From Chloroflexota bacterium (lineage in GTDB: Bacteria > Chloroflexota > Limnocylindria > Limnocylindrales > CSP1-4), in NCBI GenBank assembly GCA_021802825.1, contig JAJZRG010000002.1:92740-156739 (forward strand): a stretch of DNA of 64,000 nucleotides, given 5' to 3'. The position numbers and the translations under genes are program-made. Position 1 is the stretch's first letter. Every line of letters starts with the position of its first letter. The notes under the pieces are model-generated. The model searched no databases. It saw only the letters and a list, made by a program, of their open reading frames with translations, and was not told the origin of the DNA. Shown here in pieces: positions 14,263 through 63,407 of this stretch.

Positions 14263-14603
14263 GAGAACTCCTTCTGCCGCGCCTCCGGTGTCGTGCGGCA
14301 GGCTGCCGTGCACGCGCAGGATACTGACCGAGCGCCGGGCGTGCCCGGTCCACCCGTCCCGACCGGCCGTGCCGATGGGCAGCCGATGGGTAGCGGGTTA
14401 GCCCGACGCTGGCACGGTTGGGCCGTCGGCGCGTCATCCAGGCTGCCGGGGCGTGCGTGGCGACGCGCAGCGGGGAGTGCGGCGTCCGGACGGGCAACGA
14501 GCGCACTGGGCGTGTGCAACGCTTGGCGTGTTGCGGGCGGCAGCGAGCACTGGTCGCAGGGCCAGCGCTCGGGACCGGCGCTGCGATGCGAAGGAGGCCG
14601 GGG

Positions 14604-34084: not shown

Positions 34085-35581
34085 ATGACTGCCGCGCGAG
34101 CCGGCACCGGACCCAGGACGCAGCCGACGCCCCTCGCCGACGCGGTCGTGTTCTTCGGCGCCACCGGCGACCTCGCCTTCAAGCAGATCTTCCCCGCGCT
34201 CGCCGGGCTCATCCGCGACGAGGGCCTCGACGTGCCCATCATCGGCGTCGCGCGCTCGGGCGACCTCGAGAGCCTCCGGGAGCGCGCCCGCCAGAGCCTT
34301 GCGGCGAACGGGTTCACGGACGCGGCCGCGACCAGGGCGCTCACCGACCACCTGCGCTACGTCAAGGGCTCGGACGACGACGCGGCAACCTTCCACGCGC
34401 TGCGCCGCGAGCTCGGCGGCGCGCGCCACCCGCTCCACTACCTCGCGGTGCCGCCCGCGCTGTTCGGTGAGGTCGTCGTCAACCTCCAGGCGTCGGGCTG
34501 CTCGACCGGCGCCCGGATCATCGTCGAGAAGCCGTTCGGGCACGACCTCGCCTCGGCCATCGCCCTCAACGAGACGATCCACTCGGTGTTCGCCGAGCGC
34601 GACGTCTTCCGGATCGACCACTACCTGGGCAAGGAGCCCGTCCAGAACCTGCTCTACTTCCGCTTCGCGAACGCGTTCCTCGAGCCCATCTGGAATCGCG
34701 ACCACGTCTCGAGCGTGCAGATCAACATGCCCGAGGCGTTCGACGTGGCCGACCGGGGCGCCTTCTACGAGCAGGCCGGCGCGATCCGGGACGTCGTCCA
34801 GAACCACCTCCTGCAGGTGGTGAGCCTGCTCGCGATGGAGGCGCCGTCGGGCCACACCCGCGAGGCGGTCCGCAACGAGCAGTTCAAGGTGCTCGACTCG
34901 ATCCCGCCGCTCGCCCCCGACGACGTGGTCCGCGGGCAGTACCGCGGCTACCGCAAGGTCGCCGGCGTCGCGCCCAGGTCCAGGGTCGAGACGTTCGCGG
35001 CGATGCGGCTGCACGTGGACACCTGGCGCTGGTCCGGGGTGCCCTTCTATATCCGGACCGGCAAGTGCCTGCCCGCGACCGTCACCGAGGTCCTGGTTGA
35101 GATGCGCCGGCCGCCGCAGTCGGTGTTCGGCGATGCGGCGCCGGCCGATGCCGACTACTTCCGGTTCCGGCTCTCGCCCGACATGTCGATCTCGCTCGGG
35201 GCACGGGCGAAGAAGCCGGGCGAGGCGATGGTGGGCGAGGCGGTCGAGCTCTTCGCCTCGCACGAGCGGGGGACCGAGCGGCCGCCGTACCAGCGCCTGA
35301 TCGGGGACGCGATCGGCGGCGACCAGTCGCTGTTCGCCCGCGAGGATTCGGTCGAGGCGGCCTGGCGGGTCGTGGACGATGTGCTCGACGTTGGGACACC
35401 GCACGCGTACGAGCCGGGAACCTGGGGCCCCGACGAGGCCGCGAGCGTGCTCCGGCGCGGTGATCGCTGGCACAACCCGGTCGCGACGCCCCGAGTCCCC
35501 GCGGCGACGGTGCCTGGCCACGCGTCCGCGACGACGCCCGCGAGGGGCGCGGGCCGCGGCATCTCGGGCGACCACCGATGA
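34085..35581 (+). CDS. zwf: Glucose-6-phosphate dehydrogenase
   Basis: NADP-binding [19 protein letters not shown]; active-site signature RIDHYLGKE. Confidence 0.95.
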
Positions 35582-38037
35582 GCGAGACGGAGGCGGACAC
35601 GCCGGCCGCCGAAGGCCTGCTGGCGCCGGGTGCGCCGGGCACCCCCCCGACCTGGTCGAGCAGCGACAAGGACGCCGTGGGCACGTCGCACTACTCGAGC
35701 CGGGTCTGGTTCACCGTCGGGCGCGGGATCCTCAACGAGGTCTACTGGCCGCACGTGGACCGGCCGCAGATCCGCGACCTCGGCTTCATCGTGGCCGACG
35801 ACGCGGGCTTCTGGAGCGAGGTGAAGCGCGACGCGACCCACGACGTCCACGGCGAGGGCGACGGCGTGCCGGCGATCACGGCCGTGCACCGCCACCCGAG
35901 CTACGAGCTCACGCTCCGGATCATCGCCGACGACCACGCCGATGTCGTCCGGATCGAGGCCCGGCTCGCGGACCTCCGCGACGCGGCCGACCCGGGGCTG
36001 GCTGCGCACCCGCTCCGCCTGTACCCCCTCCTGGCGCCGCACCTCGGCTTCAGCGGCCTCCGCGGCCGGGCGTGGGTGGGCGAGCACAAGGGGCGCCCCA
36101 TGCTGTTCGCCCAGGACGGGCCCTGGGCGCTCGCGCTCGCCTCTGACCCGGCGCCCGTGCGCCAGTCGGTGGGCTATGTGGGCGCCTCCGACGGCTGGCA
36201 CGACTTCGCGGCCAACGGCCGCATGACCTGGGCCTATGCGAGCACCGGCACCGGCAACGTCGCGGGCATGGCCGAGCTCGTGCTCGACGGTGGCCGGGCC
36301 CAGCTCGCGCTCGCGTTCGGGACCCGGCCGGAGGAGGCCGGGCTCGAGGCGTCGGCGGCCCTAGCCGGTCCGTTCGAGAGCGCCTGGGGCGAGTACGTCG
36401 CGAACTGGCACGGCTTCCTTCGCACCGTGGTCGACCCGCCGGCTGACCTGCCGCAGGCGGACCGAGACCTGTACCTCGTCTCGGCGTCGGTGCTGCGGGC
36501 GCACCAGGACCGGACCCTTCCTGGCGCGACGGTGGCTAGCCTCTCGATCCCGTGGGGCAACACCCGCAACGACCTCGGCGGCTACCACCTGGTCTGGGCG
36601 CGCGACCTTGTCGAGTCCGCAGGCGCCGTCGTCGCGCTCGGCGCGGCCGCCACGGCCCGGCGCACGCTCGCCTACCTCGTTGCGTCCCAGGAGCCGGACG
36701 GCCACTGGCCCCAGAACCAGTGGGTGGACGGGGTTCCCTACTGGACCGGCCTCCAGCTCGACGAGTCCGCCTACCCGCTGCTCCTGGCCGGGGCGCTCCG
36801 GACCGGCGCCTCGCACATGCACGGCCGGACCGGCCCTCACGTGGAGGCGTTCCAGAACCTCGTGGCGCAGCCGGCGCTGGACCGGATGATCGCGCGTGCC
36901 GCGGGCTTCCTCGCGCGGACGGGCCCGGTCACCAGCGAGGATCGCTGGGAGGAGACCGCTGGGCTCTGCCCGTCCACCCTGGCGCCCGTCGTGGCAGCCC
37001 TCGTCGTGGCCGCCGACCACCTTCCGGAGCCGGGCGCCAGCTACTGCCTCGAGCTCGCCGACGACTGGAACGCATCGATCGAGGACTGGACGTACGCGCG
37101 AGGCACCCGTCTGGCCCAGGCCCACGGCGTGGACGGCCACTACATCCGGATCGCGTCGCCGGACGTGCTCGCCGGGGCGCCGCTGTCCACCCCGGTCACG
37201 CTCCGGAACCAGCCTCCGGGCTCGTCGCTCGTGTCTGGTGACGAGATGGTCGGGACCGACTTCCTGGCGCTCGTGCGATTCGGGCTCCGCCTGCCCGACG
37301 ACCCCCGGATCGTGTCCAGCCTCGCCGTCGCCGACGCCCTCCTGCGGACGGACACCCCGAGCGGGCCCGTCTGGCACCGCTACACGGGCGACGGCTATGG
37401 CGAGCACGAGGACGGGAGTGCGTTCGACGGGACCGGGATCGGGCGGGGCTGGCCGCTGCTGGTGGGCGAGCGCGGCCACTTCGAGCTCGACGCCGGCCGC
37501 GACGCGCGACCCTACCTGACGGCGATGCGACGCATGGCATCGCGCGGCGGGATGCTGCCCGAGCAGGTCTGGGACGCGGCGCCGATCCCCGAGCGCCGCC
37601 TAGCGCCCGGCCGGCCGAGCGGTTCGGCGATGCCGCTCGCCTGGGCCCACGCGGAGTACGTGAAGCTCGTCCGGTCGATCGCCCTGGGCCACTCGATCGA
37701 CCGGCCCGAGGCGGCCTGGCGACGCTACCGCGGGATCGCCCCGACGCCGACGCGGGCGACGTGGCGGTTCACCGCCGCGCGACCCTCGATGCCGACCGGC
37801 CGCACCCTCCGGCTGGAGGTGCTCGCGCCGGCTCGCGTCCGCTACTCGACCGATGGCGGCCGACGCTGGGCGGACCTCGACGCCCGCGACACGGGCCTCG
37901 GCGTGTGGGTGGCCGACATCCCCGGCTCGGACCGGCTGCCCCCCGGCGCGGCCGTGGACTTCACGTTCTGGTGGCCCGAGGCCGGCCACTGGGAGGGACG
38001 CGACTTTCGGGTGGGGGTCGTCGCGCGGGGCCAGTGA
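35578..38037 (+). CDS. Glycoside hydrolase family 15 protein (bacterial glucoamylase/glucodextranase/trehalase-like)
   Basis: ATG overlaps the zwf stop (ATGA); N-terminal beta-sandwich domain plus (alpha/alpha)6 catalytic domain with RWEETAGL catalytic-Glu region. Confidence 0.85.
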
Positions 38038-38212
38038 TTCAGCGGCCGCGAGCGTCGCCTGTGTCAACCTGAGAGCTTGGCGCCGGGCGCGGACGACCGC
38101 GGCAAGGTCCTGAGGGGTCCGCGGATGACGCAGATCCGGACAATCGCGGTTCCCGATCGCCGTGGTGGTGTCGCGACACAGGACCACAAGGGGCGGTGGT
38201 CGGATGGGGGAG

Positions 38213-38267
38213 TGGAGCCGACACTCGGATTTGAACCGAGGACCTGCTGTTTACGAACTAGATCGGC
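38213..38267 (-). other. tRNA 3'-end-like fragment (T-arm + acceptor 3' strand + CCA), about 55 nt; candidate att site remnant at a genomic-island boundary
   Basis: Minus strand reads GCCGATCTAGTTCGTAAACAGCAGGTCCTCGGTTCAAATCCGAGTGTCGGCTCCA: T-arm CTCGG-TTCAAAT-CCGAG, acceptor strand TGTCGGC, discriminator T, CCA. No D-arm or anticodon arm could be folded upstream by eye. Confidence 0.45.
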
Positions 38268-38489
38268 CTAAGCGCTGTGGCCTGAGCGTGGGATGGCGAG
38301 CGCAGGCTGCTCAGTTAGCAGGTCTTCGTTTCGAGCTCGTATCGCTGCTGCTCATTGCCTCCGAGGATGCGCGTGGTCACCGCCATCCTAGCCCGCTACC
38401 GAAACGACGCAACCCCGTTCTTGCTCCGAATGCGGCCGATCACCCGAACTGTACTGTGCGGGCTTTGGTGAAGTAGGTGGGATCGGCTC

Positions 38490-38506: not shown

Positions 38507-38739
38507 CACTCATCCGAGCCTATCAGCATGCTGAGCCCGCGGCGGGGCGACGACGCGAAGGATGGCCCTCTGGACGCGAGCCGGCCGACGTCAGTGCGGT
38601 GTCGCCGACCCAAACCTAGCAACGACCACGACGAACCCTTCTAGCCCGCCCGACCGGCTCACGCACCTAAACCTTCGGGGCTGGTGAACACGGCACACGC
38701 TCGTGCATGGACGCCGTGATCTCGGCCACTCGCCCTTCG

Positions 38740-39513
38740 TCAGCGCTGTCGGCTCGAGCCTGGCGCACTTCCCTCCCACCGGCGCTCCAGGGAGGCCTTG
38801 TCATGCTGCACGCGGACGATGACTCCAGCGAGGATCCGCGCGATCCCTTGCCCCTGTTGTGGCGACAGCGGCGGCGGGGGGCACCACTCGCTGCAGTGGG
38901 TGACGCCGGTCGGTCCGTACTGCCAGCTCATCGTCGCGCAGGTCGGGTAGAGCGCCCGGTACCCCGCCCCCTCGCGCTCGAAGGCCTCGGCCTCCTCTGG
39001 CGTGTGCTTCGTTGCGGGCTTCCACTCCGGCGCCCCGACGAAGCCCCGGCCGCACCGGCGGCAGGCGGCACCTCCCGCGAACTCCTCCCAGGACAGGCGC
39101 TGCTCCTCGGTCCAGCGCCGCGCAAGGTGGAAGACCGGAACCGCCCGGCAGTACCGGGCGCGGAAGACGAGGCGCTCGTCGCCGACCTCGACCGCGAAGT
39201 GGACGACCACGCCGTCGTGGCGCCGCACGTGCCCGACCGTCTCTGCCCGACGCCGGCACTCCTTCGCATCGGACTTCTCCGGCCGCTCGGCCGGGGTCCA
39301 CAGGCCTCGCGCGGCGGCTGCCCCGAGCCAGTCGCGCTCGCACCCCGGGTACCACTCGGAGAAGTGGGTCAACTCGTCGCGTGGGTCGTCGAGCGCGGCC
39401 GCCCGGCGCGCCCACGCCTCGTAGTCGTCTCGGGCGCTCCCGCTGATCAGGACCTCGACCGCCTCGATCGCTGCCCGCTCTGCCCGCTGCGGGCCGGGGC
39501 GACGTCCTGCCAT
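38740..39513 (-). CDS. Hypothetical protein
   Basis: ATG 39511-39513 with GGAGGATGATGAG RBS; 257 aa; Cys/Trp-containing; co-directional with the upstream excisionase-like gene. Confidence 0.45.
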   Translation of the reverse strand: MAGRRPGPQRAERAAIEAVEVLISGSARDDYEAWARRAAALDDPRDELTHFSEWYPGCERDWLGAAAARGLWTPAERPEKSDAKECRRRAETVGHVRRHDGVVVHFAVEVGDERLVFRARYCRAVPVFHLARRWTEEQRLSWEEFAGGAACRRCGRGFVGAPEWKPATKHTPEEAEAFEREGAGYRALYPTCATMSWQYGPTGVTHCSEWCPPPPLSPQQGQGIARILAGVIVRVQHDKASLERRWEGSAPGSSRQR

Positions 39514-39544
39514 CTCATCATCCTCCGCGGCGGACGCGCTCGCC

Positions 39545-40351
39545 TCACCACGACCGGCGGCCGGGGTAGCCGCGTCCCTTCTTGCTGGCGGCGGCTGCCG
39601 TCGTGTACGCGCGGATGCTGGTCCACGACGCGCGGTACCGGTCGGCGTCCTCGGCGAGCCGCCCCTCGATCCACTCCTCAAGCGCCCTCACGGGCAGGAG
39701 GACCCGCTTGCCGATGCGCAGGCTCGGGATCGTGCCCTTGGCCGCGAGCGACCCGATCGTGGACGCGGACAGCCCGATCACCCTGGCGGCGTCGGCGACC
39801 GAGATCAGCAGCGGCTCCATGCCCACGGCGAAGCGCTCGTCGCGCGGCGAGGCCACCTCAGGCGGCTCAGCCTTCGGCGGCGGCGCGGCCGTCGGGGCGG
39901 ACGGCGGCGGCTGCGCCCACGGGTCCTCCTGCTCGCGGTGCTCCTTGCGCGCGACGTGGTAGCTCATCGCCACCGGATCGATGAGCAGCCGGCACCGCAG
40001 GCAGATGCGCTTGGGTGACGGGGCGTCCGGCGGCAGCTGGCGGGACAGGCGCTCGATGGCGATGCCGACCTGCCGCGCCTCCACGCGGAGCGACGCGCCC
40101 GCGCCGAGGTTCGCGATTCCGACCCAGGAGCCGTCAGGCCGTCGGAAGACGCCGCTCTCGCCGTGGGCGAGGCCGAAGTGGCGCCCCTCGGGGTCGACGG
40201 GCCTGATCCTGTCCGGCGAGATCGGCCGGGGCGCGATCACGCACTCACGGTGGGCCGGGGAGTCGACGTGCCGCTCCCAGTCGCGCCAGGTCCTCCAGGT
40301 CACGACCACGTCGCACACGGCGCAGTAGCTGACGCGCTCGGTTGTCGCCAT
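39545..40351 (-). CDS. Helix-turn-helix (excisionase/MerR-like HTH_17) DNA-binding protein with a Cys/His-containing N-terminus
   Basis: C-terminal LLISVADAARVIGLSASTIGSLAAKGTIPSLRIGKRVLLPVRALEEWIE is an excisionase-family HTH; N-terminus has CAVCD...H...C. Confidence 0.55.
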   Translation of the reverse strand: MATTERVSYCAVCDVVVTWRTWRDWERHVDSPAHRECVIAPRPISPDRIRPVDPEGRHFGLAHGESGVFRRPDGSWVGIANLGAGASLRVEARQVGIAIERLSRQLPPDAPSPKRICLRCRLLIDPVAMSYHVARKEHREQEDPWAQPPPSAPTAAPPPKAEPPEVASPRDERFAVGMEPLLISVADAARVIGLSASTIGSLAAKGTIPSLRIGKRVLLPVRALEEWIEGRLAEDADRYRASWTSIRAYTTAAAASKKGRGYPGRRSW

Positions 40352-41371
40352 GCACTGGATTGTGCCCCGCCGGAGAGTCGGGGTCTCAGGCTGTGTGCCA
40401 CCCTGAGCGCCGGCGACCCAACGCTCCCCCGCAGCCGCTGGACTCTGGCCGCCCGTAACGGCCCCGGGTCCACCTCCTCTCGCCGGCAGCATGACCAGCA
40501 GGGGCCGTCGAGGGTCGTTCGGCAGCACGTGGCCGCAGGCAGTCGGGGTCCACGACCACGCATGCCGTGCCTCGAAAGCTCGCGGACGATGCCCAGATCT
40601 CCCCCGCTGCAGCGCTCGGGCGAGCGGACGGCCTCGACTCCAGTTGCGGGCGCCCTCGGTGGCGTCCACGCGATCGCGGTCGGCCGGCGACGGCGTCGAT
40701 CTCGCTCAGGAATGCGTCCGCGACCTTCTGGAACATGTGCGACGAGGGTTGGGACGGGCGGACGGACCTGTCCGCAACCCAGTACGTGTACTCGTCCCAT
40801 TCAAGGAGCAACGCTGCAGACGTCCCGGCGGTGAGCCGCGGCCGTCCCTCCTCCCAGTCGTGGACCGCGCCTGAGAGCTCGCGTTCGTACCCGCGCAGGG
40901 ACGGGGACCCAGATCGCCGGAGCGACACGATCGAGGGACGCTCTGGCGCGATGGACGCTCGCGGTGCCGCAGCCTGCGGCCCGGACGATGGGCAGGCGAT
41001 GGACCCGCTGTTCGTGGCGGACCCGAGCGAGGCCGAAATCGGGGAGGCCCTCCGCCTGCGGCCCTGGTTCGCCGGGAAGCCGGTCCGGCCGCTGCTCGTC
41101 TCGGCCTTCGGCGACGTCTTCGTCGAGACGGACGCCGGCGACGCGTGGGTCCACGCGGCGGGGCACGAACCGCGGGATGACCACCCAGCGCGCGGCCGCG
41201 CCAGGCACATCGGGTCGTCTCGCCGATCCCGCGCCGCCGGGCCAGTGAGGGTTGGACCGCAGTTCGGGGCCTCGCGTCCCGCGCACGCAGGGACGAATGT
41301 CCTCCCCGCGGCTGAGGCACCGGCAATAGCCTCGCTTGCTGACCAGCCAGCACTCCAAGGGGGAACGCGAC

Positions 41372-42193: not shown

Positions 42194-43420
42194 TCACGCA
42201 GGCTGGACGATCGAGACCTGGTAGCCGAGCGCCTCGAGGCGGCGGGTGAGCCGGTGGCGCGTGCGCTCGCGGTCGCGCTCGTCGAGGTAGGCGGCCCCGA
42301 GGTCCTGGAACTCGACCCCGCGGGCGAGGACGTGGTACGCGATCACGATGATGTTGTGGGCGACCGCGAAGGTGGCCCGCTTGGCGCCGCGGCGGGCGGC
42401 GAGCCTCTGGTGGAGCGCGCCGAGGTACGTCGGGCTGCGGCCCGCGGCCTTCGCCGCCTCGACGAGCATCGAGCGGAGCCAGGGGCTGCCCTTGCGGGCG
42501 CGGCCCGAGCGCGACTTGCCGGCGCTCTCGTGGTTGCCCAGGCACAGGCCGGCCCAGGAGGCGAGGTGGCCCGGGCTGGGGAAGCGCCCCATGTCCGACC
42601 CGACCTCGGACAGGATCGTCTCGGCCGTCCGGCGCCCGACGCCCGGGATCGTCTGGAGGCGCGCCAGCTCCGCCTCCAGCCCGGCGAGGCGGGACGCGAC
42701 CTCCGCCGACACCTCGGCGACCAGCGCGTCGATGGCGTCGAGGTGCCGCAGCAGGGCCCCGAGCAGGAACCGCTGGTGCGGGCCGACCCGGCCCTCGAGC
42801 GCCTCGACCAGGGAGTCGTGCTTCTCGCGCATGCGCCCGCGGGCGAGCGACGCGATCGCCTCCGCGTCGGCGTCGCCGCCGACCATCGCCTCGAGCATGG
42901 CCCGGCCCGACACGCCGACCACGTCCGATGCGACCGAGGCGAGCTTGACGTTCGCGCCCTCGAGCACCTTCTGGATCCGGTTGACCTCGGCCGTCCGCGC
43001 CTGGAGCAGGGTGGTGCGGTACCGGGTGAGCTCGCGCAGCTCGCGCTCGGGCCGCTCCGGGATGAACGACGGGCGCAGGAGGCCGTGCCGGAGCAGGTCG
43101 GCGATCCACTCCGAGTCCCGGACGTCGGTCTTGCGGCCGGGGACCGCCTTGAGGTGGGTCGCGTTGACGACGACGAGCTCGAAGCCGCCCTCGAGCACGT
43201 TGTACACGGGCTTCCAGAACGACCCAGTGCTCTCCATCGCGACGACCGAGACGCCCGCCCCCGCGAGCCAGTCGGAGAGCTCGAGCAGTCCCCGGCTGGT
43301 CGAGCGGAACGAGGCGACCTCCCGCTCCGGCCGGCCCCGCTGCCCCGGGGTGAGGCGGCAGGCGACGATGACCCGCTTGTGCACGTCGAGCCCCGCGCAC
43401 CGGGCGTGGACGACTTCCAC
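42194..43420 (-). CDS. IS110-family transposase
   Basis: GTG start with GGAGGAG RBS (VEVVHARCAGLDVHKRVIVA...); DEDD-type N-terminal domain and C-terminal IS110 transposase domain (TIPGVGRRTAETILSEVG). Confidence 0.9.
   Translation of the reverse strand: MEVVHARCAGLDVHKRVIVACRLTPGQRGRPEREVASFRSTSRGLLELSDWLAGAGVSVVAMESTGSFWKPVYNVLEGGFELVVVNATHLKAVPGRKTDVRDSEWIADLLRHGLLRPSFIPERPERELRELTRYRTTLLQARTAEVNRIQKVLEGANVKLASVASDVVGVSGRAMLEAMVGGDADAEAIASLARGRMREKHDSLVEALEGRVGPHQRFLLGALLRHLDAIDALVAEVSAEVASRLAGLEAELARLQTIPGVGRRTAETILSEVGSDMGRFPSPGHLASWAGLCLGNHESAGKSRSGRARKGSPWLRSMLVEAAKAAGRSPTYLGALHQRLAARRGAKRATFAVAHNIIVIAYHVLARGVEFQDLGAAYLDERDRERTRHRLTRRLEALGYQVSIVQPA
42194..43420 (-). mobile_element. IS110-family insertion sequence; ends not definable by eye because IS110 elements lack terminal inverted repeats
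   Basis: Single transposase gene immediately upstream of, and divergent from, the SNF2 helicase start. Confidence 0.6.
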
Positions 43421-43681
43421 CGGACGCTCCTCCGCGGCCGCCGGCGGGCGCCCATCGTTCAGAAACTGCTTCGCGTGCTCGCCCCAGGGGAGCGGCAACA
43501 GACGGCGATGCCCGCAGGCGCCCGGGGCCAGGCTGTCACGCGGGCTCGAGGCACCAATCTTGGTGCGGCCTCGTCGACCGGCACGACCGCGGCCCCATTT
43601 TCATACGCGGCGGTGGCGCGCGTGCCATCAGAGCTGTCACCGCAGGCGTTATGGTTGGCCCGAAGTCCGGGTGCTAGCAAC

Positions 43682-46600
43682 ATGCGAGGCGGCCCGGAGG
43701 GGAGGACAGTCAAGATCGCCCGCCTCGAGGACCTGACCAACGGCGCGCTCCTCGCCGGCGTCGTGCCCGACGCCCACGTGACGGTGGTGAACGTCGCCTG
43801 GCACGGCTCCGCCGTCGTGACGCTCACGTACCGGCTTGCGGACGGCGCCGTCGCGGAGAAGCTCCTGTTCCGCGAGGACGAGCCCAAGCTCGTGCTGGTC
43901 GCGGAGGGCCGTCCGTGGTCGTTCGACGGGGACGGCGACGCCTTCCGGCTCGCGTCCGAGGCCAAGCGCATCAGCCTCGCGTACCTGTTCGACCCGTACG
44001 TCGCAGTCTCGACGAGCCTCGTGGAGCCGCTGCCGCACCAGATCACCGCGGTCTACCGGGAGCTCCTCGACCGCCAGCCGCTCTCGTTCCTGCTGGCGGA
44101 CGACCCGGGCGCCGGCAAGACGATCATGACCGGGCTCTACATCCGGGAGCTCCTGGTCCGCGGCGAGCTGCGCCGGTGCCTGATCGTCGCGCCGGGCTCG
44201 CTCGTCGAGCAGTGGCAGCAGGAGCTGGCGGACAAGTTCCACCTCCACTTCACGCTGCTCAGCAACGAGCTCGCCAACGGCTCCCCGTCGGGCAACGTCT
44301 TCGCGGACAACGACCTGCTGATCGCGCGCCTCGACAAGCTGAGCCGAGACGAGGACCTCCAGCTCGCCATCGAGAACGCGCCCGACTACGACCTGATCGT
44401 GTTCGACGAGGCGCACAAGCTCGCGGCGACCCTGTTCGGCGACGAAGTGAAGGAGACCCGGCGCCGCAAGCTCGCCGTCAGGATCCGCGACCACGGCCGG
44501 AACCTGCTGCTCCTGACCGCCACGCCCCACAACGGCAAGGAGGCGGACTTCGAGCTGTTCATGAGCCTCCTCGACCCCGACCGGTTCGCGGGGCACAAGC
44601 GCAAGGCGTCCGAGACCGCCCCGCCCGCATCGAAGACCGACGGCCTGATGCGCCGGCTCATCAAGGAGCAGCTCGTCAAGTTCGACGGCACGGCGCTGTT
44701 CCCGCCGCGCTTCGCCTACGTCGTGCCCTACGACCTCTCGGACGCCGAGGCCGTGCTCTACGAGCGCGTCACCGCGTACGTGCGCGACGAGATGAACCGC
44801 GCCGAGCGGCTCAAGGCGGAGGGGGAGGGGAGGCGCGGCACGATCGTCGGGTTCGCCCTGACGGTCCTCCAGCGCCGCCTCGCCAGCTCGCCCGAGGCGA
44901 TCTACCAGAGCCTCCGCCGACGCCGCGAGCGCCTCGAGCGGACCGTCGCCGAGACGGAACTGCTGCGCCAGAGTGCGGAGGTGCGTCTGCGGATCCCCGA
45001 GCTCGACCAGGTCAGCCTGACGACGATCCGCGAGCTGTCCGAGGAGGGCGACGACGTCGACCCCGACGACGCCACCGCCGCCGAGACCGAGGACACCGAG
45101 GAGACCGCGGTCGACCTCGCGACCGCGGCCACGACGATCGCCGAGCTCCGGACCGAGATCGGCATCCTGCGCGAGCTCGAGGCGCTCGCGGCCGACGTCC
45201 GCCGGCGCGGCACCGACACCAAGTGGACGGAGCTGTCCCGCCTCTTCCAGGAGGCGCCCGAGATGGTCGACGCGGGCGGCGGGCGCCGCAAGCTCGTCGT
45301 GTTCACCGAGCACCGCGACACGCTCAACTACCTCGCCGAGCGGATCGGCACGTTCCTCGGCCGCCCCGAGGCGATCGTCGCCATCCACGGCGGCCTGCCG
45401 CGCGACCAGCGCCGCGCCGCCGAGAGCCGGTTCAAGAGCGACCCGGACGCGATCGTGCTCCTCGCGACCGACGCCGCGGGCGAGGGCATCAACCTCCAGC
45501 GCGCCCACCTGATGGTCAACTACGACCTGCCCTGGAACCCCAACCGGCTCGAGCAGCGGTTCGGCCGGATCCACCGCATCGGCCAGACCGAGGTCTGTCA
45601 CCTCTGGAACCTCGTCGCCCACCAGACCCGCGAGGGTGACGTCTACGCGCGGCTGCTCGAGAAGATCCAGGTCGAGTCCGAGGCCCTGGGCGGCGCCGTG
45701 TTCGACGTCCTGGGCCAGCTCACGTTCGAGGACGGCAAGAGCCTCCGCGACCTCCTCATCGACGCCGTGCGCAAGGGCGACTCGCCCGAGATGCGCCTCT
45801 GGCTGACGGACGTCCTCGACGACGCGCTCGACCAAGACAACCTGCGCGCCCTCCTGCGCCAGCGTGCGCTCGGGGCGAACCTCCTCGACGCGGCGACCGT
45901 CGCCGGCGTCCGCGACCAGCTCGAGCGCGCCGAGGCCGCGAGGCTCCAGCCGCACTACGTCCGCGGGTTCTTCCTCGAGGCGTTCCGGGGCCAGGGCGGC
46001 ACGGTGCGCGAGCGCGAGCCCGGCCGGTACGAGCTCACGAAGGTGCCGGGGCGCATCCGCGATCGCGCCCGCGAGGCCGGCTACCGCCCGGCGGTGCTTG
46101 GCGCGTACGAGCGGATCGCGTTCGAGAAGGACCGGGTCGCGGTTGCCGGGACGCCGCTCGCCGAGTACGTGTGCCCCGGGCACCCGCTCCTCGAGGCCAC
46201 GATCGACCTCGTCCTCCACGAGCACCGCGACCTGCTCCGCCGAGGGGCGCTGCTCGTGGACCCGACCGACCCCGGCGACGAGCTGCGGGCCCTCGTGTAC
46301 CTCGAGCACTCCGTCATCGACGCGCGGCCCAACCGCAACGGCGGCCCTTCGGTCGTGTCGCGGCGCCTCGAGTTCGTCGAGATCGGAGCACTCGACGCGC
46401 GGGGCGCCGGCGCCGCGCCGTACCTCGACTACCGGGGGGCGACAGCCGACGAGCGGACGAAGCTCACCCCGGCGATCGCAGGCCAGCCCTGGCTCGTCGG
46501 GTCGGCGGTCGAGGGTCGAGCGCTCGCGCACGCCATCGAGCACCTGTCCCGCGCGCACCTCGCGGAGGTCCGCGAGCGCACGCTCGACCGGGTCGGCCGT

Positions 46601-47287
46601 ACGCGGCGCGAGGTCGACGCCCGCCTGACCTACGAGATCAACTATTGGGACGGACGGGCGTGGAAGCTCGAGCAGGAGGAGGCCGCCGGCAAGAGCGTCA
46701 AGCTCCCCAGCCTCCAGGCCCGCAGGCGCTCGGACGACCTGCGCGACCGACTGCGCTCGCGCAGCCGCGAGCTCGACCAGGAGGCGCAGGTGGACGCGCT
46801 GCCGCCCGTCGTCGTGGGCGGGGCAATCGTCGTGCCGCAGGGACTCCTCAACCGCCTGTCGGGCAGGCCTGCGCCCGAGGTCGACCTGTTCGCCCGAGAG
46901 ACCCGGCGCATCGAGCTGGCTGCCATGCAGACCGTGTTCGCCGCCGAGCGCGCCGCCGGCCGCGAGCCGCGCGACGTGTCCGCGGACAAGGTGGGCTGGG
47001 ACGTGGAGTCGCGCGAGCCGGGGGGTCGGCTCCGCTTCATCGAGGTCAAGGGCCGCGCCGCGGGCGCGACGACCGTCACGGTGACGCGTAACGAGATCGC
47101 CAAGTCATTCAACGTCCCGGACCGCTGGTACCTCGCCATCGTGACCGTGGACGGCGAGCACGCCGACCCGCCAGTCTACCTGCGCACGCCCTTCCGGCAG
47201 GCGCCGGAGCAGGCGGCGACATCGGTCAACTACGCCATCAAGGAGCTCCTCGAACAGGGGCACATCGTCGAGGTGGGAGGTGTGTAG
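43682..47287 (+). CDS. SNF2-family (superfamily 2) helicase with C-terminal DUF3883 restriction-endonuclease-like domain
   Basis: Motif I LADDPGAGKT, motif II DEAHK, helicase-C region (LATDAAGEGINLQRAHLMVNYDLPWNPNRLEQRFGRIHRIGQ), C-terminal DUF3883-like segment (RLRFIEVKGRAAGATTVTVTRNEIAKSFNVPDRWYLAIV). Start taken at ATG 43682; the longer tracked ORF is an antisense extension across the IS110 gene. Confidence 0.9.
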   Translation: MRGGPEGRTVKIARLEDLTNGALLAGVVPDAHVTVVNVAWHGSAVVTLTYRLADGAVAEKLLFREDEPKLVLVAEGRPWSFDGDGDAFRLASEAKRISLAYLFDPYVAVSTSLVEPLPHQITAVYRELLDRQPLSFLLADDPGAGKTIMTGLYIRELLVRGELRRCLIVAPGSLVEQWQQELADKFHLHFTLLSNELANGSPSGNVFADNDLLIARLDKLSRDEDLQLAIENAPDYDLIVFDEAHKLAATLFGDEVKETRRRKLAVRIRDHGRNLLLLTATPHNGKEADFELFMSLLDPDRFAGHKRKASETAPPASKTDGLMRRLIKEQLVKFDGTALFPPRFAYVVPYDLSDAEAVLYERVTAYVRDEMNRAERLKAEGEGRRGTIVGFALTVLQRRLASSPEAIYQSLRRRRERLERTVAETELLRQSAEVRLRIPELDQVSLTTIRELSEEGDDVDPDDATAAETEDTEETAVDLATAATTIAELRTEIGILRELEALAADVRRRGTDTKWTELSRLFQEAPEMVDAGGGRRKLVVFTEHRDTLNYLAERIGTFLGRPEAIVAIHGGLPRDQRRAAESRFKSDPDAIVLLATDAAGEGINLQRAHLMVNYDLPWNPNRLEQRFGRIHRIGQTEVCHLWNLVAHQTREGDVYARLLEKIQVESEALGGAVFDVLGQLTFEDGKSLRDLLIDAVRKGDSPEMRLWLTDVLDDALDQDNLRALLRQRALGANLLDAATVAGVRDQLERAEAARLQPHYVRGFFLEAFRGQGGTVREREPGRYELTKVPGRIRDRAREAGYRPAVLGAYERIAFEKDRVAVAGTPLAEYVCPGHPLLEATIDLVLHEHRDLLRRGALLVDPTDPGDELRALVYLEHSVIDARPNRNGGPSVVSRRLEFVEIGALDARGAGAAPYLDYRGATADERTKLTPAIAGQPWLVGSAVEGRALAHAIEHLSRAHLAEVRERTLDRVGRTRREVDARLTYEINYWDGRAWKLEQEEAAGKSVKLPSLQARRRSDDLRDRLRSRSRELDQEAQVDALPPVVVGGAIVVPQGLLNRLSGRPAPEVDLFARETRRIELAAMQTVFAAERAAGREPRDVSADKVGWDVESREPGGRLRFIEVKGRAAGATTVTVTRNEIAKSFNVPDRWYLAIVTVDGEHADPPVYLRTPFRQAPEQAATSVNYAIKELLEQGHIVEVGGV

Positions 47288-47338
47288 CCTCGCTGCACGT
47301 GCTGGTTCTCGGCGCGGCCGGAGTCCGGAGGTTGACGC

Positions 47339-48565
47339 ATGAGCCGTGGCGGGCCTGTGGGAGCGGCAACGCGGCAGCGGGTAGCCGCCGCCATCGACGC
47401 CGCCATCACCGCGCATTCGAGCGCGCGGCCATCGGCCCGAGACATTCTCGATTCGGCGCTCGAGGAGTTGCCCGGCTCGTCCGGCGACACCCGCGGCCCG
47501 TGGGTGGGGCGGTCCGCGAGCTTCGATGCCATGCTCGAGGAGGCCCAGTCGCGGTGGCCCGAGGACTTCGAGGCCACGCTGCTCGAGTTCGTCGATGGGA
47601 TGATCTCCGAGCAGGCGGCTCTCGACCGGTTCGCCACTTGGTCGGACAGGCCCTGGGGGACAACCGGTCCGGAGTGGACCGACATTGGGGCAGACATCAC
47701 CGAGATCGGCGTCGAGTGGAGCGGCGGGTTGTCGCCCTTGGCTTCCAGCGACCTCGTGTTCCGGCCTGGCGGCGCGTCACGCACGGAGGTCTACCACGGG
47801 GGATCCCCGGAGACCGAGCACGCATCGTTCGATCTGAGCGCGTTCGAGGATCTGGCGCGGGCGGCCGCCGCGCTGTACGCCCCGCGGGAGCACCCGCGGG
47901 ATCGGGCATCGGAGACAGTGGTCTTTGACGCCGGGGAGACGTACGTCTGGCTCCACCGTGCGCGCAGGCGTGTCCCCTGGCAGGGCTCGGCACTCGGGCC
48001 GTCCCTCGTCAAGCTGTTGAGCGAAGCAGCAGATGGTCTCGACTGGAAGCCAGCGAGCGAGCTGCCATTGAGATGGGACACCGGGCGCCCGGTCACCGGA
48101 GTCGATGGCGGGACCGTTGATTGCCCGATGTGCCGCCAGGGCATCCTCACGGCCAGGTACGGCCGGTTCGGCGAGTTCGTGGGCTGCTCGCGGTACCCCG
48201 AATGCTCCTACGTCAAGAAGGATGGACCGCCGCCGCCCGACCAGCTTGCGTTCGAGGTCCGCTGTCCCAAGAACGACGACGGCCACCTCGTCGCGCGCCG
48301 TGTCCGGCGCACCGGGAACGTCTTCTGGGGGTGCTCTGCCTACCCCAAGTGCGACTTCACGACGAGCGGCGAGCCGACGGGCGCCATCCACGATGCCCAT
48401 GAGGGTGGGCTCGGTGCGGTTGCACGGCACGGCGGCGACGGGACTTGCATGACCTGTGGCGCGGCGGTCGAGCTGCCGTCGACGGTCAGTCCCGGCTTGC
48501 GGTTGCCGGGCGGGCCACCGGACCCGGCAGCACTCTCGCGTCTCCGTCGGTCGAAGAAGCGATGA
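47339..48565 (+). CDS. Protein with two topoisomerase-type C4 zinc-ribbon domains and an uncharacterised N-terminal domain
   Basis: CPMCRQGILTARYGRFGEFVGCSRYPEC and CPKNDDGHLVARRVRRTGNVFWGCSAYPKC fit the Topo I C-terminal zinc-ribbon repeat pattern (C-x2-C ... C-x4-C). Confidence 0.6.
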   Translation: MSRGGPVGAATRQRVAAAIDAAITAHSSARPSARDILDSALEELPGSSGDTRGPWVGRSASFDAMLEEAQSRWPEDFEATLLEFVDGMISEQAALDRFATWSDRPWGTTGPEWTDIGADITEIGVEWSGGLSPLASSDLVFRPGGASRTEVYHGGSPETEHASFDLSAFEDLARAAAALYAPREHPRDRASETVVFDAGETYVWLHRARRRVPWQGSALGPSLVKLLSEAADGLDWKPASELPLRWDTGRPVTGVDGGTVDCPMCRQGILTARYGRFGEFVGCSRYPECSYVKKDGPPPPDQLAFEVRCPKNDDGHLVARRVRRTGNVFWGCSAYPKCDFTTSGEPTGAIHDAHEGGLGAVARHGGDGTCMTCGAAVELPSTVSPGLRLPGGPPDPAALSRLRRSKKR

Positions 48566-48634
48566 CTGGCGACCCGGGGATGCGGCCAGGCGCGCGCCCG
48601 ATGGCGGCCGGATCGGGGTCGGCGGAGGTCAGGC

Positions 48635-51067
48635 ATGGAGCTTAGCGATCGGCTCGCGGGCGCGGTCTGGGGGCACCTGGTCGGCGACGCGGTGGGCGTC
48701 CCGTACGAGTTCAAGCCGGCGTCCTCGATCACGAGCGTCCACTTCGGCGTCGCGGGGACCCACTCCAAGCCGGCCGGGACGTGGAGCGACGACGGCGCGC
48801 TCATGCTCGCGCTGCTCGACTCGCTGCTGCGCGATCGGCAGGACGGCGAGTCGGTCTTCGACACCGCCGACGAGGCGCAACGCTTCCTGGCGTGGTGCGA
48901 CTCGGGCGCCTACACCCCGGGCGGAGAGGGCAGGTTCGACATCGGCGGGGCGACATCGAACGCCCTTGCGCGCCTGCGTAGCGGCACCCCGGCCGAGGAC
49001 GCTGGCGGCACCGGCGAGCGCGACAACGGCAACGGGTCGCTGATGCGGATCCTTCCCCTCGCGCTCGCCGACCGCGACGCGTCCAGCGAGGTCCTCGTCG
49101 AGCGCGCCTTCCGGGCCTCCGCGGTTACGCATGGGCACGTCGTCTCGCAGGTCGCGTGCGCCATGTATGTCCTGATCGCCCGCTACCTCCTGCTCGGCTG
49201 CTCGCGTCAGGCGGCGTTCGAGCGAGCCCACGGAGCGCTGTTCGGCATGTGGGCGCCGGGGGACGACGCCCGGCTCGCGGTCCTCGCGGAGCTGATGGCG
49301 TGGAAGGGCCGGTCGGGCCGCGGCTTCGTCGTCGACTCGTTCTGGTCGGCGTGGGACGCCCTCACGGGAGCCCACGACTACCGGGGGACGATCGAACGCG
49401 CGGTGCGTTACGGGAACGACACCGACACGACGGCCGCGATCGCTGGCGGACTGGCCGGCATCCGCTTCGGCCTGTCGGGCATCCCCGCGCACTGGCTGTC
49501 CGGCATGCGCGGTGCGGAGGTCGTCGCGCCGCTCGTCGCCAGGCTCACGGGGAGCCCCGCAGCGGCGGCCCTCGCAGGCTCGCCGTTCCGCACGGAGGCG
49601 GCGGTGCCGGGTGCGCGGACGTCGGAGAGCCACCCGCTGTACGTCAACTGGGTGGAGTCGTCTGCGGTTCCTGCGGCGGCCGGCTGGACGGGACGCCTCG
49701 GCATGAGCATCCTCGCCGGAAAGAAGGCCCAGGGGATCGCCGGGCTCCACTGGCGTGACGTCGAGACGGACATCACCAGGCTCGCAGAGCACGAGCACGT
49801 GGAAACCTACGTGCTGCTCGTCGAGGATCACGAGCTCGTCGAGACCAAGACGACGGGCATCCCCGATGCGTGCGCCAGGCACGGGATCGACCTGGTCCGG
49901 TTCCCGGTGGCGGACCACGGCGTGCCGGATCACACGGGCGCATACGCCGCCACGCTCGCGGCGGTCGAGGATCGCCTGCGTGCGGGCCGGACCGTGCTCG
50001 TCACGTGCAAGGGCGGCCTCGGGCGGACTGGCACGGCGGTCGCCTGCATGCTCCGCGACGCGGGCCTCGACGCCGAGGAGGCGATGGCGGTCACCCGCCG
50101 CGCCCGCCACGGGGCGATCGACCACGGCGCGCAGGAGGCGTTCGTCCGCTCCTGGGAGCCGGCAGCGCGTGGCACGTCGGCAAGCGGCCCCGGGGGCGCC
50201 GCCGAGCTGGCCGCCGGCGACGGTTTCACCTTTATCGACGGCGTCCTCTCGGCGTACAAGGCTGAGCTCGCTCGGCTCGCCCGAGGCGTTGTCGCCGGGG
50301 CCGCGCCGTCAGCCCGGGACGCCCGGGCAAGGGTGCTCGAGGCCCACGAGCAGGCCAAGGGCCTGTGGGCGAGGTACTCGCCCGAGGCGGCCGCGTACGG
50401 GCGGGTCGTCGAGGCGGGGCAGGGACGGGCCCGGTTCTTCAACGCGCTCGTCGATGCCGCGACGGCGCGGTGGGGCCAGCCGTCCGCGTCGTACTCGGAC
50501 GCCGTCGCCTGGCAGCGGGCTAGCGAGTGGGTCGACCCGGAGCAGGACACGCTCATCATCGACTGGGTCGTAGGCGAGCTGTCGCGCGAGGCCGAGACGA
50601 TCCTCCCGTTCGACCGCTACGAGGGCGGCGGCCGAAAGCCTCTCGGCAGGCCGCGCCAGGGCGACATGACCGCCCGCCACGGCTACGGGCCGCCCGTCTT
50701 CGAGCAGTGCGGCTACACGTGCGTCTACTGCGGGCTCGAGATGGGGGCATCGTTCGAGAACTGGCTCCAGCTCTCGGTCGACCATGTCATTCCGCGCCAG
50801 ATGAAGAACGCAGGGTTCGACCCGGCCCTAGTCGAGGACATCACGAATCTCGTGACCTGCTGCCGCGAGTGCAACGACTTCGGCAACCGATACACCGTGT
50901 CGGGCGAGGCCCCGGCGACCTACGCCGCCTTCTACGATGTTCGCGACCGCGTGTTCAGCGAGCGCAAGGCGATGATCCTCGCCAAGCGCGAACAGGAGCG
51001 CGCGATCTTCGCCAAGCTGCCGGCCGCCGGGCCGGACCGACCGGCCGTGGCCGGGGAGGACGCGTGA
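48635..51067 (+). CDS. Three-domain fusion: ADP-ribosylglycohydrolase + Cys-based (CX5R) protein/dual-specificity phosphatase-like domain + HNH nuclease
   Basis: ARH motifs GAVWGHLVGDAVGVPYEF ... GNDTDTTAAIAGGLAGI (aa 1-300); phosphatase P-loop VLVTCKGGLGRTGTAVACML (aa about 455-472); HNH motif CGYTCVYCG...LSVDHVIPRQ...NLVTCCRECN (aa about 692-748). Confidence 0.8.
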   Translation: MELSDRLAGAVWGHLVGDAVGVPYEFKPASSITSVHFGVAGTHSKPAGTWSDDGALMLALLDSLLRDRQDGESVFDTADEAQRFLAWCDSGAYTPGGEGRFDIGGATSNALARLRSGTPAEDAGGTGERDNGNGSLMRILPLALADRDASSEVLVERAFRASAVTHGHVVSQVACAMYVLIARYLLLGCSRQAAFERAHGALFGMWAPGDDARLAVLAELMAWKGRSGRGFVVDSFWSAWDALTGAHDYRGTIERAVRYGNDTDTTAAIAGGLAGIRFGLSGIPAHWLSGMRGAEVVAPLVARLTGSPAAAALAGSPFRTEAAVPGARTSESHPLYVNWVESSAVPAAAGWTGRLGMSILAGKKAQGIAGLHWRDVETDITRLAEHEHVETYVLLVEDHELVETKTTGIPDACARHGIDLVRFPVADHGVPDHTGAYAATLAAVEDRLRAGRTVLVTCKGGLGRTGTAVACMLRDAGLDAEEAMAVTRRARHGAIDHGAQEAFVRSWEPAARGTSASGPGGAAELAAGDGFTFIDGVLSAYKAELARLARGVVAGAAPSARDARARVLEAHEQAKGLWARYSPEAAAYGRVVEAGQGRARFFNALVDAATARWGQPSASYSDAVAWQRASEWVDPEQDTLIIDWVVGELSREAETILPFDRYEGGGRKPLGRPRQGDMTARHGYGPPVFEQCGYTCVYCGLEMGASFENWLQLSVDHVIPRQMKNAGFDPALVEDITNLVTCCRECNDFGNRYTVSGEAPATYAAFYDVRDRVFSERKAMILAKREQERAIFAKLPAAGPDRPAVAGEDA

Positions 51068-53892: not shown

Positions 53893-53904
53893 GGGGAGCG
53901 ACAC

Positions 53905-56900: not shown

Positions 56901-57174
56901 CAAGTCCCCGGAGCCGCCCAAGCCCGCGAGCATCCGCAGGTTCCACGGCCAGGCCGTCCTGTCGGACCCGCGGACGCCGATCCCCGAGCTCCAGAAGCTC
57001 GTCGCCGAGATCATCGGCCCACTTGCCGCCCAGACCGAGGTGAGCCTCACCATCCGCGTGGAGATCGAGGCCGACCACCGCGCCGAGGCCGGTTTCACCG
57101 ACCAGACCATCCGCACCGTGTCCGAGAATGCGCGAACCCTGCGCCTCCGCGACTTCGGCTTCGAGCGGGAGTAG
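53905..57174 (+). CDS. DUF499 (BrxC/PglY-like) P-loop ATPase with N-terminal Swt1-type HEPN domain
   Basis: GTG start after GGGGGAG; HEPN R-x4-H motif LTRNRWAH in the first 110 aa; Walker A TTFGGGKTHSMLAL, Walker B VVVLVDEWVTY; large C-terminal region typical of DUF499 proteins. Confidence 0.9.
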   Translation: MALSNRERIGRMLDGLAGGLKPVVDRMFTEAYGTAWVSRVDADRPANAGPADPNDAQFLLNAAWFHWNETLGRTLGPAEKNYVNELRLTRNRWAHPGERPFTGEDVYRAYDTAERLLRSVASPAADDVGKAKSQVLMENAVAQAKDRQKAPAVAATAGEPAKGLAPWRSVVTPHPDVAAGRYRQAEFAADLAQVARGEGAKEYVDPREFFARTYLTEGLRLLLTGALRRLAGTGGESVVDLQTTFGGGKTHSMLALWHLAAAGASITSLPGLEGVVADAGVASLPRVARAAIVGTSLSPITPRVVEGAEIRTLWGELAWQLGGPEGFARVAEADRAGVPPGADALRGLLAAYAPVVVLVDEWVTYARLQWGKDALPGGSFDAALSFAQQLTGAVDQVPGALLVVSLPSSVIEVGGEGGQKALAALKHVVHRVDAPWRPAAAQESFEIVRRRLFEPITAEAARSRDEVVQQFSELYSANTGMFPSDTKEKSYLERLRNCYPIHPELFDRLFDDWSTLERFQRTRGVLKLMAAVVHTLWEKQDGNLLILPGAIPLDDGEVMPQLIQYLDDGWDAIVEGDVDGTSSLPLRLDRENHGTYGRYSAARRVARTVFLGSAPLPAAANRGIDDKRILLGAVQPGETPATFGDALRKLAGQATYLYENAGRYWYSTQPSVNQLARDRADQQAQDQVELEIEARLKKALADRLPFHRIHAAPRDASDVPDEDEVALVALRPEHPHDAKGLGSKARDAAAAILASRGAGTRVNKNMLVFLAPDSLRLPELEDAVRQFKAWSSILADGDAGRLNLDDFGRAQAKSQRDSFDATATSRVPETYHWLLVPEQADALSPVELKAVKIAPGPDIAARAAAKLRSEELLITRYGGVNLRLVLTQTLKDYWGQHHEVGMRELWGWFAHYPYLPRLLDMSVLEGAVEDGVGNLLWRSETFAYAAAREAGGAYMGVVAGRRAPTPVTSTSLIVDGSLIRDAPARSPVPPVDDMPEGGHKSPEPPKPASIRRFHGQAVLSDPRTPIPELQKLVAEIIGPLAAQTEVSLTIRVEIEADHRAEAGFTDQTIRTVSENARTLRLRDFGFERE

Positions 57175-57177
57175 GGG

Positions 57178-63395: not shown

Positions 63396-63407
63396 GCCCG
63401 GATCCCG

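Follow-up and report, generated by a model that had tools for sequence, protein, structure and literature searches.

We analysed a 64,000-nt stretch of DNA from an uncultured Chloroflexota bacterium (the window; G+C content 72%), in which a short sequence on the minus strand, at positions 38213-38267, looks like the 3′ part of a tRNA gene. The sequence stands where the gene content changes, as an earlier note on this DNA had remarked. Positions 1-38037 hold housekeeping genes, among them those for cytochrome oxidase, histidine kinases, transporters, transketolase, G6PD and glucodextranase, and from 38.7 kb onwards there follow genes of unknown function, an IS110 element, an Hma defence system, a TIR gene, an IS5 fragment and a Phd-like gene. 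The G+C profile shows no sharp step at this border. The features at and next to the tRNA-like sequence are as follows.

35578..38037, plus strand: glucodextranase gene of the chromosomal flank (Pfam Glucodextran_N and Glyco_hydro_15), converging on the CCA end of the fragment
38193..38212, minus strand: 20-nt trailer after the CCA, CTCCCCCATCCGACCACCGC, taken to be the tRNA gene's own trailer, on the side of the chromosome (B′)
38213..38257, minus strand: 3′ part of tRNA-Thr(CGT), anticodon loop through CCA, read as displaced and as the core of an attachment (att) site; block of identity with intact genes
38213-38216, minus strand: discriminator U and CCA
38217-38223, minus strand: 3′ acceptor strand of 7 nt, TGTCGGC
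38224-38240, minus strand: T arm, CTCGG-TTCAAAT-CCGAG
38258..38332, minus strand: class-1 arm of 75 nt, P-arm-like and not derived from tRNA, including a pseudo 5′ acceptor strand, GCCGATC
38262..38303, minus strand: three units centred on CGCT(C/T) at 14-nt spacing, GCGCTCGCCATCCC / ACGCTCAGGCCACA / GCGCTTAGGCCGAT, recognised by eye and conserved in class 1
38314..38327, minus strand: motif M, GAAGACCTGCTAAC, which repeats the core segment AGCAGGTC(C/T)TC in inverted orientation; the window has no other exact copy of M
38333..38394, minus strand: extension of the arm common only to metagenome loci L097 and L108 (blastn)

The tRNA-Thr(CGT) fragment and its parent gene

Read on the minus strand from 38267 to 38213, the sequence is GCCGATCTAG TTCGTAA ACAGC AGGTC CTCGG-TTCAAAT-CCGAG TGTCGGC T CCA. 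The T arm, 7-nt acceptor strand, discriminator and CCA that the earlier note had listed are all present, and 5′ of the T arm we find in addition a variable loop (AGGTC), the 3′ strand of an anticodon stem (ACAGC) and a 7-nt anticodon loop (TTCGTAA), the middle triplet of which, CGT, is a Thr anticodon. From this loop through the CCA (38213-38257) the fragment is identical at 45/45 positions to the 3′ end of at least 58 intact tRNA-Thr(CGT) genes in metagenomes, which excludes a chance resemblance; the 25-mer GGTTCAAATCCGAGTGTCGGCTCCA is found a single time in the window and in none of 100 shuffles. The similarity does not stop at the CCA. When core and trailer together were compared with the intact tRNA-Thr gene and trailer of locus L164, where the next gene is metabolic and not an integrase, 63/65 positions matched and the similarity ended after the 20 nt of trailer, which fits the window copy being the original, displaced chromosomal 3′ end.

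What is missing is the other half of the tRNA. A tRNA profile (nhmmer) aligned to the fragment at model positions 26-75 only, ARAGORN returned zero tRNAs and zero tmRNAs across the whole window, so that the check proposed in the earlier note turned up no complete or atypical tRNA at the fragment, and Rfam at gathering thresholds reported nothing in the window. Under relaxed settings Rfam RF00005 scored the fragment at 21.4 bits (gathering threshold 29; E = 0.095); for this the model left out the D arm and the 5′ strand of the anticodon stem and took GCCGATC (38261-38267) as a 5′ acceptor strand that pairs at 6/7 positions with TGTCGGC. The earlier note had seen no 5′ acceptor strand: the expected GCCGACA is indeed absent, but the imperfect GCCGATC had been overlooked. 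Since at least 6/7 pairing with TGTCGGC is found in 5% of all 7-mers in the window, so that one such 7-mer is expected within a few tens of positions, this pairing is at chance level and uninformative.

Scanning JGI metagenome contigs with the 45-mer, three positions of which were made degenerate, yielded at least 85 matches in at least 80 loci. Among the matches listed, 58/85 are preceded by the 30 nt GCCGACATAGCTCAG(C/T)GGTAGAGCAGCTGT, which complete a tRNA-Thr(CGT) gene, and ARAGORN called tRNA-Thr cgt in all nine intact-gene loci on which it was run. The true 5′ end of the gene is GCCGACATAGCTCAG, and the GCCGACA that the earlier note had predicted for the acceptor strand is exact for this parent. 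The remaining 27/85 matches listed are 3′ fragments. In the window, in the phage contig L083 described below and in 27/27 of the fragments listed, the break falls inside the anticodon stem, immediately 5′ of TTCGTAA, the search pattern itself having begun at the loop.

Fragments with the same adjoining arm as the window (class 1) occur as direct repeats of an intact tRNA-Thr(CGT), on the same strand, in five loci, the fragment lying downstream of the gene at 11 kb in L097, 6.5 kb in L137 and 3.4 kb in L136, and the two copies being 2.8 kb apart in L134 and 1.9 kb apart in L132. Two more loci, L116 and L125, likewise have an intact gene and a downstream fragment on one strand, but with other arms. 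In the five class-1 loci ARAGORN calls the intact copy only.

A link to an integrase is provided by L083, an IMG/VR contig of 13.9 kb that encodes a prim-pol/AAA_25 protein, an HTH_17 protein, a tyrosine integrase (PF00589, 5056-6243) and a portal protein. Starting 30 nt past the integrase stop codon, and convergent with that gene, is a 50-nt stretch 98% identical to window 38211-38260 and lacking a tRNA 5′ half. This stretch is an attP; it has a motif of its own, GGCAACAGA, on both sides of the core. In L110 an integrase related to that of L083 converges on an intact tRNA-Thr(CGT), an attL. A search of the loci for other core-linked integrases, by tblastn with the L083 integrase and by a box-II regular expression so strict that it misses L083 itself, found only L110.

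The loci also speak of repeated use of the same gene. In L137 a DUF6036/MarR block stands behind the intact tRNA; in L108 and L097 this block comes after a class-1 fragment instead, and an 11-kb sulfatase island lies between that fragment and the tRNA, a pattern of accretion. At least three further arm families share the identical 45-nt core, namely class 2 (L094, L098, L104, L118), class 3 (L115, L155, L003 copy A) and that of L083; with at least four arm families on one core, tRNA-Thr(CGT) is a multi-element hot spot in these communities. A degenerate class-1 fragment in L136 (2007-2051) carries two compensatory T-stem changes (CTCGG/CCGAG to CGCAG/CTGCG), which implies that it was copied from a different, functional tRNA-Thr allele.

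The closest relative, L003, contains three clear tRNA-Thr 3′ fragments (14241-14291, 12819-12858 and 2263-2310) and a weak fourth (1451-1485, E = 0.013), all on one strand and distributed on both sides of its glucodextranase gene, with a similar hairpin trailer after at least the first three. The one homologous to the window fragment is called a 67-nt tRNA-Thr by ARAGORN. That these fragments bracket the glucodextranase gene points to a long-standing tRNA-Thr-linked array at the locus in this lineage, and suggests that the glucodextranase block of L003 is itself within an old tRNA-linked array of that genome.

The conserved arm beside the core

Class 1 is the largest class of fragments, comprising, among the matches listed, 12 exact-core copies and two degenerate ones (L096, L097, L103, L108, two copies in L112, L130, L132, L134, L136, L137, L143, L149 and L157). 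Directly 5′ of the core its consensus reads ...CGAAGACCTGCTAACTGAGCrGCCTACGCTCGCnnTyCCACGCTynkGCCACAACGCTTAGGCCGATCTnn. In blastn comparisons, window 38203-38394 is 88-94% identical to the class-1 loci over 120-190 nt, and with the extension the identity to L097 226-410 and L108 9147-9331 is 88.5% over 192 nt. The arm, of 75-135 nt, always abuts the same tRNA fragment, and the rest of the flanking DNA is unrelated to that of the window. An nhmmer profile built from the arm only recovered all class-1 loci (E = 1e-21 to 1e-24) and found a single copy in the window. The arm was absent from IMG/VR (two scans), from INPHARED phages and from PLSDB plasmids, where only the tRNA-like part matched, in tRNA-Thr genes of Aeromonas phages and in one unannotated stretch of a Burkholderia plasmid.

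Motifs resembling M recur at about +20, +62 and +80 nt after the CCA, behind intact tRNAs as well as behind fragments, in several related loci. Short motifs repeated on both sides of a core resemble the arm-type sites of an attP, and from this likeness we infer that motif M and the 14-nt units, which Tandem Repeats Finder did not call, may be bound by protein, M being a candidate arm-type binding site for a recombinase. A structured RNA in the arm was considered and rejected, as RNAalifold found almost no covariation in class 1 (covariation term -0.65 kcal/mol). On the plus strand, a terminator-like hairpin with a T-rich tail (38307-38321) overlaps the reverse complement of motif M; as a terminator it was discarded, one such structure having been found against 0.4 expected and the stem not being conserved in the other class-1 arms.

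The arm decides how the pairing of GCCGATC is to be understood, because a heptamer lying in a conserved non-tRNA arm is not a remnant 5′ acceptor strand. It is conceivable that a tRNA-Thr gene degenerated where it stands, without any integration, through an internal deletion that took out the D arm together with the 5′ strand of the anticodon stem and joined GCCGATC-TAG to the anticodon loop, and the Rfam tRNA model does cover the whole of 38267-38216, pairing its 5′ acceptor strand at 6/7 positions and continuing with TAG. This alignment, together with the likeness to L003 copy A, had suggested an internal-deletion pseudogene or a D-armless mini-tRNA. Both were rejected, because the arm is conserved and not tRNA and the pairing is no better than in one in twenty of the window 7-mers: GCCGATCT belongs to an arm conserved in at least 12 loci, five of which have an intact tRNA elsewhere on the same contig, and the true 5′ end of the gene is a different sequence, GCCGACATAGCTCAG. 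We therefore regard decay in place as extremely improbable.

A functional small tRNA-like RNA, be it an acceptor/T-arm minihelix, a D-armless tRNA or a piece of tmRNA, is likewise hardly credible. One can draw a T arm, a CCA and an acceptor helix with 6/7 pairs, and ARAGORN does call the homologous fragment of L003; however, it calls neither tRNA nor tmRNA in the window, the Rfam score is below threshold, the predicted fold is no better than that of shuffled sequences (z = -1.5) and the covariation in the arm is negligible. Moreover, tRNA fragments miscalled as tRNAs are a known artefact (PMC9897764). A tmRNA or two-piece tmRNA, considered since the upstream ...CCTGCTAACTGA looked tag-like, was dismissed, as neither ARAGORN nor Rfam detected one and the G3:U70 pair of alanine identity is absent, the acceptor 3′ strand TGTCGGC placing a G at position 70.

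A probable integration junction at the border of a mosaic accessory region

We interpret the 45/45 identity, the break at the anticodon loop, the direct repeats in five relatives and the phage attP with its tyrosine integrase to mean that the feature is very probably an attR-type junction, produced by anticodon-loop integration into tRNA-Thr(CGT), with the displaced 3′ end at the distal border of an island. The earlier note, which had taken the fragment for an att remnant at an island border, was thus on the right track. In this process, a mobile element whose attachment site duplicates the last 45 nt of tRNA-Thr(CGT) would have recombined with the chromosomal tRNA-Thr(CGT), the crossover falling within the 7-nt anticodon loop. 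The copy brought by the element would have restored the tRNA gene at the integrase-proximal end, and the original 3′ end (38213-38257) with its native trailer (38193-38212) would have been pushed to the far end, where it would now lie between the P arm of the element (38258-38332, extending to 38394) and the old glucodextranase flank. A 3′ end displaced in this manner would mark the distal border of the tRNA-linked accessory region.

The orientation agrees with such an event. In both L083 and L110 the integrase is on the CCA side of the core, from which it follows that intact gene and integrase should lie at one end of an island and P arm and displaced fragment at the other. In the window the CCA end points to the convergent glucodextranase gene, the stop codon of which is 175 nt from the CCA, and the arm points to higher coordinates. 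Together with the trailer match to L164, this puts the island above 38258 and leads us to expect the intact gene further right, on the minus strand; the earlier note had arrived at the same geometry, with the CCA end towards the chromosomal flank and the island on the 5′ side.

Several results weigh against an integration junction. The window displays the attR-like end only. We could follow the sequence beyond it on an ENA metagenome contig, ERZ27237050 k141_761550 (38 kb; loci L002 and L001), which is identical to the window from ~33.5 kb and reaches ~71.5 kb, and for a further ~0.3 kb on L207, in which no tRNA or integrase was seen. There is no intact tRNA-Thr in window 1-64000 or in the 7.5 kb beyond, to ~71.5 kb; the tRNA 5′ half, with up to 3 mismatches allowed, was not found in the window or L001, and an nhmmer full-tRNA profile detected no other tRNA-Thr piece in either. 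Nor was a second repeat or a P′-type trailer found in the window or as far as ~71.5 kb, and a Pfam search of 38.2-71.5 kb gave no PF00589 tyrosine integrase, only transposases of the IS110 and IS5 types. The intact tRNA and integrase that the earlier note had expected past the window end are therefore at least 33 kb from the fragment, or lost. An integrase was encountered neither in seven islets described below nor among the main ORFs behind five further intact tRNAs, and the genes beside the window's arm have no homologue in any other class-1 islet.

The comparison with related genomes that the earlier note had called for lent no support either. The window glucodextranase is 71-86% identical to proteins of metagenome-assembled genomes (MAGs) labelled Chloroflexota, Chloroflexia or Candidatus Limnocylindrales, and through this gene 80 GTDB genome loci were collected and 25 related Chloroflexota MAG loci were scanned. 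G6PD and glucodextranase are the only block common to the window and the 25 loci, none of which (0/25) has an intact tRNA-Thr within 10 kb, and because only this pair is syntenic, no clean empty site was recovered. Lastly, the DNA next to the fragment looks mosaic and is not demonstrably one element. Its features are these.

38726..40352, minus strand: two-gene module beside the arm, encoding a 268-aa HTH_17 protein (39545-40351) and a 257-aa unknown protein (38740-39513)
42194-43420, minus strand: IS110 transposase (Pfam DEDD_Tnp_IS110 and Transposase_20), directly upstream of hmaA
43682-47287: HmaA, SNF2 helicase with NOV_C (PADLOC, 1529 bits)
47339-48565: Top1-type zinc-ribbon protein, between hmaA and hmaB
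48635-51067: ADP-ribosylglycohydrolase/dual-specificity phosphatase/HNH fusion, between hmaA and hmaB
about 51085-53892: HmaB, DUF1156 methylase (PADLOC, 1100 bits)
53905-57174: HmaC, HEPN-DUF499 ATPase (PADLOC, 977 bits)
57178-58047: PDC-S35 TIR protein (PADLOC, 228 bits)

The two-gene module is 86% identical at the nucleotide level, over 1628 nt, to positions 3073-4700 of L214, a JGI contig, and the likeness has sharp limits, one where the first gene begins and the other shortly beyond the second. There, truncated Tad genes precede the module, which abuts one of them, and a large serine recombinase gene follows it, whose 3′ end runs into a tRNA-Asn(GTT) gene. Elsewhere the 257-aa protein has homologues that adjoin AAA_15/AAA_21 ATPase-UvrD helicase, SbcCD-like or AbiEii genes; that the ATPase-UvrD pair is Gabija-like, and the label SbcCD-like, are our own reading. 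Judged from these comparisons, the module is a separately shuffled unit. The gene adjoining the arm had been tried as a route to a complete copy of the element and was abandoned, since the homologues point to independent shuffling of the module. The excisionase-like gene of the earlier note is the 268-aa HTH_17 protein of this module, which elsewhere travels beside the large serine recombinase.

The accessory and defence cargo spans 42194..58047 and includes a complete Hma defence system (HmaA, HmaB and HmaC) into which two genes are inserted. The first ~500 codons of a plus-strand ORF at 42188-47287 are an artefact, antisense to IS110. The G+C fraction falls to 0.65 at 51-53 kb and at 57-59 kb. 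After the TIR gene come an IS5-family fragment and the Phd-like gene, and then an operon with pilin (PF18895, 30 bits), T2SSE, T2SSF and TadE genes, in window 63000-64000 and L001 10001-18537. What the earlier note had called type IV secretion system genes is more likely a Tad/Flp pilus operon than a conjugative system. For one gene of the operon, upwards of 100 homologues are present on contigs of metagenomes and MAGs, the sole named match being to a Chloroflexi MAG, so that the operon may be chromosomal and not part of an integrative and conjugative element. The accessory block may end near 60-62 kb, without a tRNA there, or it may continue. By analogy with the related loci, the region probably grew through repeated rounds of insertion, decay and shuffling, and is probably not one intact element. 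A tyrosine integrase presumably made this particular junction, and the intact tRNA gene presumably still lies further along the contig.

Integrase-less islets and comparison with known systems

Seven islets are bounded by tRNA-Thr and a fragment, and none of them (0/7) contains an integrase. Their cargo is diverse.

L097: sulfatase, radical-SAM maturase, sulfate permease and alkylsulfatase
L137: DUF6036, MarR and STAND NTPase
L134: RES toxin and GDSL lipase
L136: AraC, glyoxalase, ABC permease and DUF2652
L112: a weak vanadium-chloroperoxidase-like match (PF17897, below the Pfam cut-off)
L116: Ig-like surface protein
L125: PfkB kinase

Behind five further intact tRNAs there is again no integrase among the main ORFs, the genes found there including a STAND-LuxR protein, a Schlafen/AEP-TOTE pair and a TPR protein. 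Keeping in mind that islets with both ends on one short metagenome contig are a sample that selects for small, decayed ones, we note that those of L097, L134, L136 and L137 keep attL- and attR-like ends with neither integrase nor transfer genes between them, as does a cis-mobilizable element (CIME). The class-1 arm is ~90% identical between loci, as against 73.5% for the coding DNA common to L108 and L137. Two histories would explain this: a recent spread of related elements followed by the loss of their integrases, or retention of the arm because it still works as a site for an integrase supplied in trans, as in the CIME concept (PMC5704250). Defence-type genes stand directly behind the intact tRNA-Thr in L099 (STAND-LuxR), L106 (Schlafen AlbA_2/HATPase_c_4 and AEP-TOTE) and L137 (DUF6036, MarR and STAND NTPase).

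These observations raise the possibility that the site is still live, with a module of arm and core, ~120 nt together, on one side and the tRNA with its M-bearing trailer on the other serving as attR and attL of integrase-less segments that an integrase encoded elsewhere would excise, stack or move. This would extend the explanation by integration into tRNA-Thr(CGT) and does not exclude it. It would account for an arm that stays 88-94% identical between loci with unrelated adjoining cargo, and for the non-orthologous arms of L108 and L137, each 88-92% identical to the window arm when the genes common to the two loci have diverged to 73.5%; it also agrees with the occurrence of motif M on both sides of the core, with the missing integrases, and with the fact that CIMEs by definition have lost integration genes and kept attL and attR (PMC5704250). 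However, neither excision nor a circular junction was observed, the search for a candidate class-1 integrase came up empty, IMG/VR, INPHARED and PLSDB do not contain the arm, two-ended metagenome loci are biased towards short, decayed islets, and the window shows one end only. We consider a live site unlikely. Going one step further, and with greater doubt, it can be imagined that the arm (motif M and the CGCTY units) and the tRNA-Thr 3′ half form a working recombination site defining integrase-less gene cassettes, which a trans-acting integrase would stack or exchange downstream of tRNA-Thr(CGT), the window fragment being the terminal site. If this were true, the locus would be a tRNA-anchored, integron-like or CIME-like array of 2-11 kb cassettes with defence, toxin-antitoxin or metabolic cargo.

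Leaving these extensions aside and returning to the attR-type junction, its recognition fixes an exact border (38213, or 38193 with the trailer) for the accessory and defence region of an uncultured high-GC Chloroflexota that is Ca. Limnocylindrales-like, and makes tRNA-Thr(CGT) recognisable as a hot spot of integration in the group. Class-1 arm and core together offer a practical marker of island borders in fragmented metagenome assemblies, including borders that tRNA predictors and integrase-based finders miss. The steady absence of integrases from the islets is mildly interesting with regard to how defence and metabolic genes build up at tRNA sites.

Among known systems, tRNA gene fragments that derive from integration and are miscalled as tRNA genes (PMC9897764) are similar in being partial, non-canonical tRNAs left by an integrated element, as the 67-nt call in L003 exemplifies, and differ in that predictors correctly call nothing in the window. 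The tDNA islands recognised by Islander, on the principle that a regenerated tDNA and a displaced fragment mark the island ends, most commonly have anticodon-centred attP sites (2083/3919 islands; PMC4383910). Like them, the window has a 3′ tDNA fragment in the expected orientation, with an anticodon-loop breakpoint and at the integrase-distal border, and the relatives add direct repeats of tDNA and fragment and a phage attP with the same core beside a tyrosine integrase; unlike them, the window lacks a full-length cognate tRNA or an integrase within 33 kb. The related islets would be rejected by Islander because they have no integrase.

Closer in phylogeny, within the phylum Chloroflexota, are the ssrA islands of Dehalococcoides, which lie in tandem downstream of the tmRNA gene and of which 16/31 have an integration module (PMC3146451). 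Shared with these are direct repeats of the 3′ end of a small-RNA gene, a conserved motif directly upstream of the repeat and accessory cargo, which in Dehalococcoides includes defence and CRISPR genes. In contrast, the Dehalococcoides islands target tmRNA with a 20-bp T-loop repeat and use a large serine recombinase, whereas here the target is tRNA-Thr, the repeat comprises 45 nt from the anticodon loop onwards and the only core-linked integrases are tyrosine recombinases. CIMEs, which accrete in tandem at tRNA 3′ ends in Streptococcus and Streptomyces (PMC5704250), are matched by the related islets in their flanking attL- and attR-like sites, in their want of integration genes and in their stacking at a tRNA 3′ end; they are not matched in that no partner element with an integrase was found for the class-1 islets, the mobility of which is putative. 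The mechanism proposed for the window is a textbook one and the feature a new example of a well-known kind, from an uncultured lineage, the integrase-less, arm-conserved islets, which resemble CIMEs, being its only mildly unusual aspect.

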